A stretch of 64,000 nucleotides of DNA, taken from Dictyostelium discoideum (lineage: Eukaryota). Positions 49,159-53,441 of the stretch are shown one piece after another. Where the stretch lies: positions 1,600,001-1,664,000 of the forward strand of contig CM000155.2 in the NCBI GenBank assembly GCA_000004695.1, written 5' to 3'. The notes beneath the pieces were generated by a model that was given only the letters and a program-made list of their open reading frames with translations, ran no database searches and was not told the DNA's origin. Position 1 is the stretch's first letter. Each line of letters begins with the position of its first letter. The translations under genes and the position numbers were made by a program.

Positions 49159-49476
49159 ATCTCCTTTTTTTAAAAAAAAAAATAAAGAAATGCAATTGGA
49201 GTTTCATAATATAACCAATGTTTTTATAAATCTATAAAACCTCCTGACATATTTAAACATTTTTTGTTTTTTAAAAATTTTTTTTTTTTTTTTTTTTTTC
49301 CCACATGACCTCACTTGTAAAAATTCAATCTCGATTAGTTATTTCCCTTACTTGTAAATAAATTTATTTGAAAGTTTTTATTATGGGAAAAAATAAAAAA
49401 ATAAAATAAAATAAAAAAAAAAAAAATAATATAAAAAAAAAAAAAAACATCATTTTTTTTGAGATATAAATTAACA

Positions 49477-49564: not shown

Positions 49565-50758
49565 TTATACATTTGTTAATGGACCAAAAATTTCATAAGA
49601 AATATTTTCTTTTGGATAACCTAATTCAATTAATTGTTTATTAATTGCAGACATAAAAGATACTGGACCACAGATGAAAACTTTAGTATCTTTAATTTGA
49701 GAAGGATTGATGAATTTTTCTAATTTATCTTTGGTGATTTGACCATCAGTTTCAGAATGAACAGTTGATACCTTTACTTTATTTGATTTTTCCAATTGGG
49801 ATAATTCATTTGCAAATGGTTGATATTGTTTGTTCTTTGAAGAGTGAACAAAGGTGACTTCTCTTTCTGGTTGTTTAGCTAAAGTTGCCTTTGCCATACT
49901 TAATAATGGAGTGATACCAACACCACCACTAACCAAAAGGATTGGATTGCTTGATAATTGGTCGACTACATAGTCACCAGCTGGAGGGGAGAGTAAAACT
50001 TTATCGCCAACCTTAACATTTGCATGCAAATGATTTGAAACTACACCATTTGGATCAGACTTTTTGAGGGCGTCTTCTTTCTTTACACTAATACGATAGT
50101 ATTGTTCGGATGGTGTGTCTGATAAACTGTAATGTCTGATGTGAGTTCTTTGTTCACCATTCTCTAAAGTTAATGGTACCTTAATGGTAATGTATTGGCC
50201 TGGAATATAGGTTGCAATTGGTTTACCATCGGCTGGTTTAAAGTAGAATGAAATGATATTGGACGACTCTTCAACCTTTCTATCGACAATGAATTCACGA
50301 GTATCTCTCCAACCTCCAATTTGCTCCTCTGTAACTTTATATAAAGCGGCTTCAGCATCAATGAAAGCTTGAGCAATTACACCATAAGCTTCACCCCATG
50401 CACCTAAAATCTCATCAGTGGCAGCATCTTGAAGAACTTCTTTAATTGCACCCAATAAATTTGTACCAACAATTGGATAATGTTCTGGTAATACACCCAA
50501 TGCAACATGTTTATGAACGATTGGAGCTAAATTTAATTCATTCAATTTATCAATATGAATGGCAGCTTGTAAAACTGTATTTGCTAAAGCATTTTGTTGT
50601 TTTCCTTCTCTTTGATTTGAATGATTGAAAATATTTAAAAGTTGTGGATTAGCTTTAAACATATTTCTATAGAAGGTTGTAGTGATATTAACTCCATGGA
50701 CTTGTAAAACAGGTACTGTTGCTTTAATAATTGAAATTGATTGTTGACTTAAAGACAT
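49565..50758 (-). CDS. fhbA: flavohemoglobin (globin + FAD/NAD-binding reductase; NO dioxygenase), single exon, 397 aa
   Basis: Globin domain (…PIVHKHVALGVLPEHYPIVG…). FNR-like module with RHYS FAD-binding motif (THIRHYSLSD), GGVGITP, ICGP. The 397-aa length matches what I recall for Dictyostelium DdFHa; symbol assignment is from memory, not a search. Confidence 0.88.
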   Translation of the reverse strand: MSLSQQSISIIKATVPVLQVHGVNITTTFYRNMFKANPQLLNIFNHSNQREGKQQNALANTVLQAAIHIDKLNELNLAPIVHKHVALGVLPEHYPIVGTNLLGAIKEVLQDAATDEILGAWGEAYGVIAQAFIDAEAALYKVTEEQIGGWRDTREFIVDRKVEESSNIISFYFKPADGKPIATYIPGQYITIKVPLTLENGEQRTHIRHYSLSDTPSEQYYRISVKKEDALKKSDPNGVVSNHLHANVKVGDKVLLSPPAGDYVVDQLSSNPILLVSGGVGITPLLSMAKATLAKQPEREVTFVHSSKNKQYQPFANELSQLEKSNKVKVSTVHSETDGQITKDKLEKFINPSQIKDTKVFICGPVSFMSAINKQLIELGYPKENISYEIFGPLTNV

Positions 50759-51121
50759 TTTTTTTTTTTTTTTTTATTTGTTTGTTTTTTTTTTTTTTTT
50801 AATAAATAAATAAATAAATAATAATATTATATGTTTAAAATATAAAATTAAATTTGTAAAATAAAATTTTTTTTTTTTTTTTAATTAATTTGGAATGAAA
50901 AGAAAAATTTATTTTTAATCATTTTATTTGAAAATAAAAAATAAAAAATAAAAAATAAAAAAATAAAAAATTAAAAAAAAAACCAAAAAAAATCAAAAAA
51001 AAATCAAAAAAAATCAAAATCATCACGAAATTTTGTTTAAATTTAAAATATACACAAATTTAGTTATCGTTTTGTTAATATCATATGATATTTTTTTTTT
51101 TTTTATCACAAAAATTTTTTT

Positions 51122-51193
51122 CGTTAAAGAGGAATTCACAAAAACCTTACCCAATTTTTTCGTTAAAGAGGAATTCACAAAAACCTTACCCAA
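51122..51193. repeat. tandem direct repeat, 2 x ~39 bp (TTTTTTCGTTAAAGAGGAATTCACAAAAACCTTACCCAA), relatively GC-rich, in fhbA upstream / fhbB downstream intergenic
   Basis: Two identical 33-bp cores (51122-51154 and 51161-51193) each preceded by T6. Confidence 0.9.
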
Positions 51194-51480
51194 TTTTTTT
51201 TTTTTTTTTAAATTTTTTTTTTTAAACTTTTAAATGGAACCATATTATATTTGATTTCCAAATATAGATATTAATAGATTAGATTAATTTTTTTTTTTTT
51301 TGTTAAAAAAAAAATATTATAATATTTTTAAAAAATAAATTAAAAAAAAAAAAATAATTAGACATAAATATCGATTATTAATAATTAAATTATTATTTCC
51401 AATTTTTTTTTTTTTTTTTTTTTCCTTATACCAAAAAATTAAAAATATCTTTTAAATTATTTTATTTTTATTTTTATTTT

Positions 51481-51511
<31 letters not shown>

Positions 51512-51519
51512 TATTTAAA

Positions 51520-52908
51520 TTAATTTTCAATAATATTTTTTACACCTCTTAACATTTGATTTTCTTCGAGGACTGGAGTTAATGGACCAAATAATTCATA
51601 ATGTACATTTTCTTTATGGAAACCTAATTGTAATAAATCTTTGTTAACTTGCATCATAAAAGGTACAGGACCACAAATGTAAACGTCGGTTTCAGCGATT
51701 TCAGCTTGATCAACATGTTGAGTTGAATATTTTTCAATGATTTCTTTATTGATATGACCTTGATTTTCAGAGTATACTAAATTGATTTTAAGATTACCAG
51801 TTTCTTTATAATCGTCTTCCAATTGTTTAAGTTCCTCTTTAAATGGTTGACTTGATTCGCAATGAGTTGAGAAAATGAAATTTATTTTTCTATCTGGTTG
51901 TTGGACCAATGTCTCTTTAAGCATACTAAATAACGGGTTAATACCAACACCACCACAAATTAAAAGGATTGGAGTCTCAGAATCGTTATTTACCACGAAA
52001 TCGCCTGCTGGGACCGACATTGGTACTACATCACCCACTTTAATATTATTATGAAAATGATTTGATACTATACCATTTGGTGTATTCTTACCGAGTTCTT
52101 TCTTTATTGAAATACGATAGTATTCATCATTTGGTTTATCTGATAAACTGTAATGTCTGACATAAGTTCTCATCTTATCAGTTGGTACATCAACACCATC
52201 ACCCGGTAATGTAATCTTTACAGTAATATATTGTCCAGGAATATAAGTAGCTATCTCTTTACCATCATATGCTTTAAAGTAAAATGATTTAATTAATGGT
52301 GTCTCTTCTTCAATTCTATCAACTACAAACTCTCTCGTATCTTTCCAACCACCAATTTGTTCCTCAGTCTCAAAGTATAAATCTTCTTCTGCATCCATAA
52401 ATGCTTGTGCAACTGCTCTATATGCCTCAGTCCATGCAGCTATAAATAATTAAATTAAAAAAATTAAAAAAAAATATAAAATATATTAATATAATTTAAA
52501 TTATTATTATTATTATTATTTACTATTATTTATAAATAAATAAATAAATAATTTACCCATAATTTCAGGAGTTGCTTCATCTTGCATTACAGTTTTCATA
52601 GCACCCAATAAATGAGCACCAACAATTGGATACATTTCAGGTGTAATACCTAATGCAACGTGTTTATGAACGATTGGCATTAAATTGATTTCATTTAATT
52701 TTTCAATATGAATTGCAGATTGTAAAATTGTATTGGCCAAAGCCACCGGTTGTTTCTGATTTCTTTGATTTGAATGATTGAATATATTTAAAAATTGTGG
52801 TTGTGCTTCAAACATATTCTTATAGAAGAGGCTAGTGATCTCAACTCCATATTTCTCCAAAAGTGGTACAGTTGATTTAATTATTTGAATTGATTTTTGA
52901 CTTAACAT
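51520..52908 (-). CDS. fhbB: flavohemoglobin paralog, 2 exons, 423 aa
   Basis: Exon 1 52908..52557 (MLSQKSIQIIK…TPEIMG, donor GTAAAT). Intron 52440-52556 (117 nt). Exon 2 52439..51520 (AAWTEAYRAVAQAF…RHYSLSD…GGVGINP…ICGP…). Total 1272 nt including the stop = 423 aa. Tandem with and ~60% identical to the 397-aa gene. Confidence 0.88.
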
Positions 52909-53441
52909 TATATTTATATTTACTTATATATTTATTTTTTATTTGATTATAAATTTTATATATGTTTTTTTTTTTTTTTTTTTGATTTTAAGATTCTTTT
53001 TGAATATAAAGTTTTTAAAAGAAAAAGAAAAAAAAAAGGTTTTTTAAAAGAATAATTAATAAAAAAAGAAAAAAAGAAAAAAAGAAAAAAAAAAAAAAAC
53101 TATTACAAAATGATTAAAACTTAAACAAAAATTAAAAAAAAAAAAATAAAAAAAAAAAAAACTGATTTTTTAATTTAACTGAAAAACCTGCAAAAATCAT
53201 TTTCTATCAATTGAAGGAAATTTCAATGGAAAACATGTGAGACACTATGTAATATATCAATTGGTGAACGCCAAAATTAAATGAATGATCAACCAAAGTA
53301 GTATTTAATGATGGGAAAAAACCGCTGAAATTGTTTTATATGTAAAACTATGAGGAGAGTACACACTTTTTTTTTTATTTATTTTTTTTTTTTTATTAAA
53401 TTACGAAATGTGTTCGTTTTTTTTTTTTTTTCATTTTTTTT

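Follow-up and report, generated by a model that had tools for sequence, protein, structure and literature searches.

The locus analysed here raises the question of whether a short repeat lying between two flavohemoglobin genes is a regulatory device or a recent accident. The genes are arranged head-to-tail on the minus strand of a 64,000-nucleotide stretch of Dictyostelium discoideum DNA (hereafter the window), and the spacer between them carries a tandemly duplicated unit of 39 bp on the promoter side of the second gene. A first-pass annotation, made from the letters and the open reading frames, had proposed a duplicated transcription-factor site, for example for NO or iron-responsive induction. 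We consider it likely that the locus consists of the known fhb gene pair together with a young, slippage-type duplication of a putative site, restricted to the reference lineage.

Identity and structure of the gene pair

The presence of two minus-strand genes, one of 397 aa without intron and one of 423 aa with a single 117-nt intron, was confirmed by the open reading frames and their translation (Table 1). The symbols fhbA and fhbB, initially assigned from the protein lengths, are correct. The 397-aa product exactly matches UniRef100_Q9UAG7 (FHBA_DICDI), Flavohemoprotein A, DDB_G0292378 of AX4, and the published qPCR primers fhbA-F and fhbB-F each map to a single site, at 50129-50148 in the 397-aa gene and at 52247-52266 in the 423-aa gene. 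According to the open reading frame listing and translation, the whole fhbB gene covers 51520-52908 on the minus strand, with intron ends GTAAAT..ATAG. The spacer was found at the expected place but measures 761 bp from the fhbB stop to the fhbA ATG, and not 762 bp as first counted. No tRNA genes are present in the 64-kb window.

The two proteins share 243 of 408 positions (60%) by BLASTP, as had been estimated. The globin, FAD and NAD modules attributed to them were recovered in both, in the form of the Pfam domains Globin, FAD_binding_6 and NAD_binding_1 and of the motifs RHYS (residue 208 in FhbA, 212 in FhbB), GGVG (278 and 280) and CGP (363 and 373). When compared to the NCBIfam model NF009805, FhbA scores 472.5 bits, above the curated full-length cutoff of 432; FhbB scores 428 bits, 4 bits under this cutoff, and spans the full length of the model. 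FhbA aligns to the R. eutropha FHP (1cqx) with E=2.8e-88, and its residues Y30, Q54, H84, Y94 and E136 are paired with the corresponding FHP residues, in columns that we take to be TyrB10, GlnE7, HisF8, TyrG5 and GluH23. Motifs equivalent to these heme-pocket residues are present in FhbB. Judged from their sequences, both proteins are Hmp-type flavohemoglobins, predicted to be of the NO dioxygenase type. Their globin-FAD-NAD three-domain architecture is common to E. coli Hmp (1gvh), R. eutropha FHP and yeast Yhb1 (4g1b), and the bacterial and yeast flavohemoglobins display the same heme-pocket column residues as well as RxYS, GxGxxP and CGP. Unlike the bacterial genes, those of Dictyostelium are eukaryotic and one of them contains an intron. 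The nearest non-amoebal relatives are Bacillales proteins (50-53% identity), in line with the horizontal transfer proposed as the origin of the Dictyostelium flavohemoglobins (PMC4081604). The pair is probably of bacterial ancestry and the product of a tandem gene duplication, and low oxygen induces both genes.

The gene part of the earlier interpretation is therefore fully supported. The genes of the window are D. discoideum fhbA and fhbB themselves, also designated DdFHa and DdFHb or DidiA and DidiB, with no difference at the gene level. Their head-to-tail arrangement, the single-exon structure of fhbA and the 117-bp intron of fhbB have been in print since 2014 (PMC4081604), and the pair adds nothing new because it was previously cloned, knocked out and analysed. 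The repeat is the sole unpublished part of the observation, as no published description of the 39-bp duplication was found in a search of the accessible literature.

Table 1. Features of the fhbB-fhbA locus (window coordinates; upstream distances are counted from the fhbA ATG)
Feature	Position	Strand	Evidence or remark
fhbA (DDB_G0292378) CDS, 397 aa, one exon	49565..50758	-	ORF listing, exact FHBA_DICDI match, fhbA-F primer, NF009805
Spacer fhbB-fhbA, 761 bp, 10% GC; fhbB 3' flank and fhbA promoter side	50759..51519	-	
Conserved TTTTCATTCCAA, roughly 140 bp 5' of fhbA ATG	50890..50901	-	at most 1 mismatch in 6/8 genomes
Alignable fhbA upstream module holding the repeat, -248 to -529	51006..51287	-	
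Gene-proximal 39-bp copy	51116..51154	-	core 51122-51154, -364 to -396
Conserved half of unit, ATTCCTCTTTAACG in gene sense	51122..51135, second instance 51161-51174	-	mean column identity 0.80
Gene-distal 39-bp copy	51155..51193	-	core 51161-51193, -403 to -435
T6 continuing the perfect period	51194..51199	.	among A/T runs flanking the unit; possible microhomology
fhbB exon 2, stop codon included	51520..52439	-	spliced translation of 423 aa; fhbB-F primer
fhbB intron, 117 nt, GT..AG, 2.6% GC	52440..52556	-	splice reconstruction; length and position (H2.1) as in PMC4081604
fhbB exon 1	52557..52908	-	ORF listing and translation

The 39-bp repeat

The description of a perfect tandem duplication of a comparatively GC-rich unit was borne out: the two 33-bp cores are identical, recur with a period of 39 bp and have a GC content of 36%, against 10% in the spacer. 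The period-39 identity is perfect over 84 bp (51116-51199) with the structure T6+33+T6+33+T6, and TRF reports a period of 39 with 2.2 copies. Each copy was said to be preceded by T6, which is true of the second; the first is preceded by T7. No match to the core at 3 mismatches or fewer was obtained in any of the shuffled windows. Once microsatellites are set aside, the 64 kb contain no other perfect tandem duplication whose unit reaches 20 bp and a GC content of 20%.

Distribution in relatives and origin of the duplication

The orthologous spacer was compared in nine other assemblies, eight of which lie outside the window lineage. Apart from the window, a single assembly has two copies, namely GCA_054883475.1, which shows no substitutions against the window over 7.2 kb. 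A single orthologous copy, unchanged in place, is present in two other assemblies of D. discoideum, two of D. cf. discoideum, two of D. citrinum and in D. dimigraforme. When compared to the 33-mer of the window, this copy displays 3 mismatches in 33 in the two other D. discoideum assemblies, 2 and 8 mismatches in the two D. cf. discoideum and 8 in one D. citrinum, the distance to the ATG being unchanged in all of these. In the other D. citrinum assembly and in D. dimigraforme, the single copy is detectable in the multiple alignment alone. In D. firmibasis the copy can barely be recognised and is too diverged for certainty, and in D. purpureum no spacer element could be made out upstream of either gene. 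In the alignment, the gene-proximal copy of the window corresponds to the one present in the relatives; the gene-distal one is without counterpart in all eight genomes outside the window lineage. A literature search returned no publication describing the newer Dictyostelium assemblies.

Since the two-copy state is limited to the window and one assembly and relatives hold a single copy, the repeat represents a tandem duplication that occurred recently between the A/T runs on its flanks and is confined to the lineage of the reference strain. The fhbA coding sequences of these D. discoideum assemblies diverge by about 3%, as compared to the 100% identity of the two copies in the window. An ancestral two-copy state was considered and rejected because eight genomes, outgroups included, have no second copy and because the copies are identical.

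In the single-copy alleles, A runs flank the unit on both sides. The starting state was a single-copy segment already present upstream of fhbA. The oligo(dA/dT) runs that flank this segment most likely allowed its duplication, through slippage during replication or through unequal exchange between them, an event that would leave the reference strain with two putative sites 39 bp apart. Both microhomology-mediated tandem duplications and tandem-repeat polymorphisms of promoters occur in yeast and other genomes. The same features are found here, namely identical head-to-tail copies, flanking short direct repeats, differences between strains and a single-copy allele in relatives. The microhomology is in this case a homopolymer run (A6 between the copies, A7 after the second copy), hence the register is ambiguous and the exact slippage event not reconstructable. 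In a genome of extreme AT richness, the locus offers a clean case of a tandem duplication that arose recently between A/T runs. It is also a matter of strain background, as the 39-bp promoter duplication of the reference lineage is missing from other D. discoideum isolates, which is relevant to hypoxia reporters built on the AX4 fhbA promoter and to comparisons of fhbA expression between strains.

Conservation of the unit

The conserved half of the unit is the gene-proximal one, ATTCCTC[T/A]TTAACG, matched at 13 or more of 14 positions in D. citrinum JBTAPK, in D. dimigraforme and in three of the other four assemblies from the discoideum complex. With an identity of 0.80-0.81, it ranks among the best 14-nt windows of the spacer having at least 4 G/C (top 0.82), and its 12-mers are retained with no more than one mismatch in 5-6 of the 8 genomes. 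The whole 33-mer is matched at 30 of 33 positions within D. discoideum and at 25 of 33 in D. citrinum, the identity at fhbA third codon positions being 0.91-0.92 and 0.79, respectively. It is no better kept than these third positions and the constraint on it is therefore modest. Further footprints are present in the alignable upstream module, TTTGGAAATCAAAT in 7 of 8 genomes and AACGATAACTAA in 5 of 8, and the TTTTCATTCCAA site closer to the gene is possibly the core promoter region of fhbA.

As the conserved half belongs to the better-conserved islands of the spacer, a protein-binding site is plausible, and we consider that this half probably contains one. The upstream position, the single-copy ortholog and the conserved proximal half together fit such a putative site and argue against a dispersed repeat.

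Regulatory significance

The proposal of a duplicated transcription-factor site survives in part: the unit is indeed located on the upstream side of fhbA (-364 to -435), has single-copy orthologs and retains a conserved proximal half, but its duplication is not a conserved design. In its stronger form, the proposal holds that the two units are a selected pair of sites rendering fhbA inducible by NO, iron or oxygen and that the duplication matters for the response. The location of a G/C-rich, half-conserved unit in a spacer of such low GC content speaks for it, as does the inducibility of fhbA, whose expression rises 6.0x in hypoxia (PMC10307954). NO as the trigger is nevertheless contradicted for this gene, since fhbA is induced neither by the NO donor SNP (0.44x) nor by H2O2 (0.84x) (PMC10307954); induction by hypoxia and not by NO distinguishes the Dictyostelium fhb genes from bacterial and yeast flavohemoglobins. 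Moreover, two other D. discoideum assemblies and all the sister species lack the second copy. The motif of the unit is missing, at up to 3 mismatches, upstream of the co-induced fhbB in 10 of 10 genomes, and a hypoxia motif search revealed no conserved 8-10-mer shared by the two upstream regions, that of fhbA and that of fhbB. Comparison of the unit with the Myb, STAT, GBF G-box and HRE motifs gave no fit good enough to be claimed. A selected pair of sites is thus unlikely, and with a recent slippage-type duplication, which we favor, the extra copy would have little or no effect on expression.

No HIF is known from Dictyostelium, although genes such as rabR, srsA and cxgS are hypoxia-induced (PMC12750705). 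A more specific possibility, to which we attach a low probability, is that the segment binds a HIF-independent low-oxygen factor and that the reference laboratory lineage is a two-site variant with an altered strength of the fhbA response. If true, the one-copy and two-copy alleles would constitute a ready handle for finding the factor. The present evidence does not single out the 39-bp element as a low-oxygen switch. Another oxygen-responsive paralog pair of D. discoideum, cxgE and cxgS, encodes the oxygen-switched cytochrome oxidase subunit VII; these genes reportedly also lie in tandem, with the control region in between (Bisson et al. 1997). The two cxg genes respond to oxygen in opposite directions; fhbA and fhbB both go up.

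Alternative explanations of the repeat

The unit might be a piece of some dispersed repeat or mobile element that lies in the spacer by chance, which is very improbable in view of its position and of its copy number in the 140 kb searched. The 64-kb window has only two copies at 3 mismatches or fewer, no further copies occur at up to 6 mismatches in 140 kb (the window and the compared loci), and a metagenome scan with a degenerate version of this sequence returned 0 matches. The single ortholog, whose position is kept in several species, points to a resident sequence.

Many intergenic small RNAs exist in Dictyostelium, and on its plus strand the unit reads ACCCAATT, which differs by one base from the upstream element DUSE (consensus WCCCAYAA). 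Both facts could suggest that the unit belongs to a small ncRNA gene or to some other unannotated spacer transcript. Rfam nevertheless finds nothing in 50600-51700 even at E values up to 10, nothing in the whole window at the gathering threshold and nothing meaningful in the fhbB upstream region. The spacer contains no exact DUSE, the window-wide count (10 against 11 expected) is that of chance, and the ACCCAA part is not conserved beyond the discoideum complex. We accordingly give such a transcript scant credence.

Finally, AT-rich Dictyostelium intergenic DNA is difficult to assemble, yet an assembly artefact of the reference sequence is extremely improbable, both copies being present in the separate assembly GCA_054883475.1, whose differences from the window are confined to homopolymer lengths and which is therefore not a copy of the same file.

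The fhbA and fhbB genes

Open reading frames and splicing bear out the tandem minus-strand pair of flavohemoglobin genes described in the first-pass annotation, the first intronless and the second interrupted by a single intron. Their products share 60% identity (243/408), as estimated there, and both contain the RHYS, GGVG and CGP motifs and the Pfam Globin, FAD_binding_6 and NAD_binding_1 domains, in agreement with the modules recognized earlier. The gene symbols assigned there were correct, since the 397-aa protein exactly matches UniRef100_Q9UAG7 (Flavohemoprotein A, DDB_G0292378, D. discoideum AX4) and the published qPCR primers for fhbA and fhbB (PMC10307954) each have one match site, in the 397-aa and 423-aa genes, respectively. 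FhbA passes the cutoff of the curated NCBIfam equivalog for NO-inducible flavohemoprotein (472.5 bits, cutoff 432) and FhbB lies 4 bits below this cutoff. The best relative of solved structure is R. eutropha FHP (1cqx, E=2.8e-88), whose residues are found in the aligned FhbA at five heme-pocket columns, which we take to be TyrB10, GlnE7, HisF8, TyrG5 and GluH23. At the sequence level, both predicted products display the defining features of Hmp-type flavohemoglobins. The nearest relatives outside dictyostelids are Bacillales proteins (50-53% identity), in line with the horizontal acquisition proposed for these genes (PMC4081604). As regards the genes, the observation is already known: the same study describes two genes arranged head to tail on chromosome 6, DidiA with a single exon and DidiB with one 117-bp intron.

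Coordinates of the fhbA and fhbB genes and of the repeat cores in the window
Feature	Position	Strand	Description
fhbA	49565-50758	-	uninterrupted ORF, 397 aa
fhbB	52908-52557 + 52439-51520	-	two exons, 423 aa
fhbB intron	between 52557 and 52439	-	117 nt, GT..AG, 2.6% GC
Repeat core, gene-proximal copy	51122-51154		33 bp, 36% GC
Repeat core, gene-distal copy	51161-51193		33 bp, identical to 51122-51154, 36% GC

Structure and origin of the repeat

Between the fhbB stop codon and the fhbA ATG lies a spacer of 761 bp, rather than the 762 bp first given, with a GC content of 10%. The tandem duplication reported in it as perfect, with a unit of about 39 bp, has identical cores and a TRF period of 39; the first copy is however preceded by T7 and not T6. 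Perfect periodicity extends over 51116-51199 in the arrangement T6+33+T6+33+T6. No other perfect tandem duplication in the 64 kb, microsatellites aside, has a unit that reaches both 20 bp and 20% GC, and shuffled versions of the window never yielded a match at up to 3 mismatches. The repeat precedes the fhbA ATG by 364-435 bp and follows the fhbB stop at a distance of at least 326 bp. Because AATAAA signals directly follow this stop, the promoter side of fhbA is its natural assignment, as originally proposed.

The orthologous locus was taken from nine other assemblies and the spacers were aligned. Two copies are present only in the window and in GCA_054883475.1, which is identical to it over 7.2 kb except for homopolymer lengths (0 mismatches); as it independently assembles the same strain lineage, it has no bearing on how frequent the duplication is in the species. 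D. discoideum JBTAPF and JBTAPG carry a single copy at the same place (3 mismatches in 33), as do the D. cf. discoideum assemblies (single copy each, 2 and 8 mismatches) and D. citrinum JBTAPK (8 mismatches). The single copies of D. citrinum JBTAPL, with a 1-nt insertion, and of D. dimigraforme, where the gene-proximal half alone is recognizable, are visible only in the multiple alignment; in D. firmibasis the segment can hardly be aligned. Over the fhbA coding sequence, JBTAPF and JBTAPG diverge from the window by about 3%, with 91-92% identity at third positions. Despite this divergence, no difference separates the two window copies, which makes the duplication derived and young.

Single-copy alleles display A runs (gene sense) on either side of the unit, and the duplicated stretch is flanked by T6 on the plus strand. 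This pattern is characteristic of slippage or unequal exchange involving short direct repeats, by which the duplication most likely arose; the homopolymeric arms leave the exact register ambiguous. Microhomology-flanked tandem duplications in promoters that differ between strains are a very common kind of event, of which the fhbA repeat is a fresh instance. It is not a surprising structure, rather a footnote useful to those employing the AX4 fhbA promoter or comparing strains.

An assembly artefact is ruled out by the two copies in GCA_054883475.1; an ancient duplication followed by repeated loss is unparsimonious, and the lack of any difference between the copies contradicts it.

At about 3% over fhbA (49565-50758), the divergence of the two assemblies labelled D. 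discoideum (L007 and L010) from the reference is wide for a single species; cryptic lineages may account for it. Within the repeat unit, the reference lineage has TTTTTGTGA (51140-51148 and 51179-51187, in both copies) where most other genomes have TTTTCGTGA or TTTTCGTAA. The same reading recurs some 25 bp downstream, in a partial copy at 51108-51116 where two assemblies retain TTTTCGTGA. This would amount to two parallel CG-to-TG changes, or to conversion between both sites.

Possible function of the unit

Conservation in the spacer was ranked over 14-nt windows containing four or more G/C. On this scale the gene-proximal half, ATTCCTC[T/A]TTAACG, reaches a mean column identity of 0.80-0.81, near the top of the spacer (best window 0.82). 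At least 13 of its 14 positions are kept in D. citrinum JBTAPK, in D. dimigraforme and in three of the four other discoideum-complex assemblies, and its 12-mers occur with at most 1 mismatch in 5-6 of 8 genomes. Conservation of the distal half, TTGGGTAAGG, is confined to the discoideum complex, and that of the whole unit is no higher than at third codon positions. Other spacer islands are conserved equally well or better: TTTGGAAATCAAAT (7/8 genomes), AACGATAACTAA (5/8) and TTTTCATTCCAA (near -140, 6/8). The unit is thus one among several footprints of an alignable module of about 280 bp (51006-51287). Regarding the duplicated transcription-factor site suggested in the first-pass annotation, the conserved proximal half is a plausible candidate for a protein-binding site; the second copy is limited to the reference lineage.

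The proposed induction by NO is contradicted by published RT-qPCR data (PMC10307954): the NO donor SNP changed expression 0.44x for fhbA and 0.93x for fhbB, H2O2 0.84x and 1.13x, and 0.4% O2 6.0x and 4.1x, respectively. A later transcriptome study (PMC12750705) confirmed hypoxic induction of both genes and did not report promoter motifs; oxygen is therefore their known signal. A common hypoxia element should also occur upstream of fhbB, where the unit is absent in 10/10 genomes at up to 3 mismatches, and the fhbA and fhbB upstream regions have no conserved 8-10-mer in common. An fhbA-specific role would be compatible with this absence. It is improbable that the factor behind the hypoxia response has its binding site in the duplicated segment.

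A dispersed repeat is a very unlikely alternative. No further copy was found in the 64-kb window at up to 3 mismatches, nor in 140 kb (window plus loci) at up to 6, and the position of the orthologs is constant across species. A small RNA gene finds no match in Rfam, even at E up to 10, and no DUSE in the spacer.

Other features of the locus

A conserved non-coding block occupies 53172-53366 (and 53398-53421); in minus-strand sense it precedes the fhbB ATG by 265-510 bp. Its conservation is far above anything in the fhbA spacer, with identities of 0.77-0.82 to D. citrinum, D. firmibasis and D. dimigraforme and of 0.93-0.97 within the discoideum complex. Indel lengths are not multiples of three, CAATTGATA is present twice and an Rfam search of the block returned nothing convincing. 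It may represent the control region of fhbB, or else the 3' UTR belonging to the SAP-domain gene that lies upstream (stop 53442).

Downstream of the fhbA stop (215-265 bp, window ~49300-49350), a short island containing G/C, made up of GGGAAATAACTAATCGAGATTGAATTTTT and then ACAAGTGAGGTCAT, shows conservation within the discoideum complex and, in part, in D. citrinum; none is seen for the DUSE-like TCCCATAA close by (49381-49388).

In D. cf. discoideum GCA_054859235.1 (L011:3549-3649), a 101-nt intron (GTAAGT..AG, phase 0) follows codon 16 of fhbA; its removal restores the full 397-aa reading frame. The intron is absent from the other nine genomes, which suggests that this gene of bacterial ancestry gained it very recently.

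In D. purpureum (L013 and L014), the fhbA ortholog has the SAP-domain gene as its immediate upstream neighbour; that of fhbB is found on a separate scaffold, beside a Ras/Roc gene. This order agrees with the published idea of an fhbB relocation in that species (PMC4081604).
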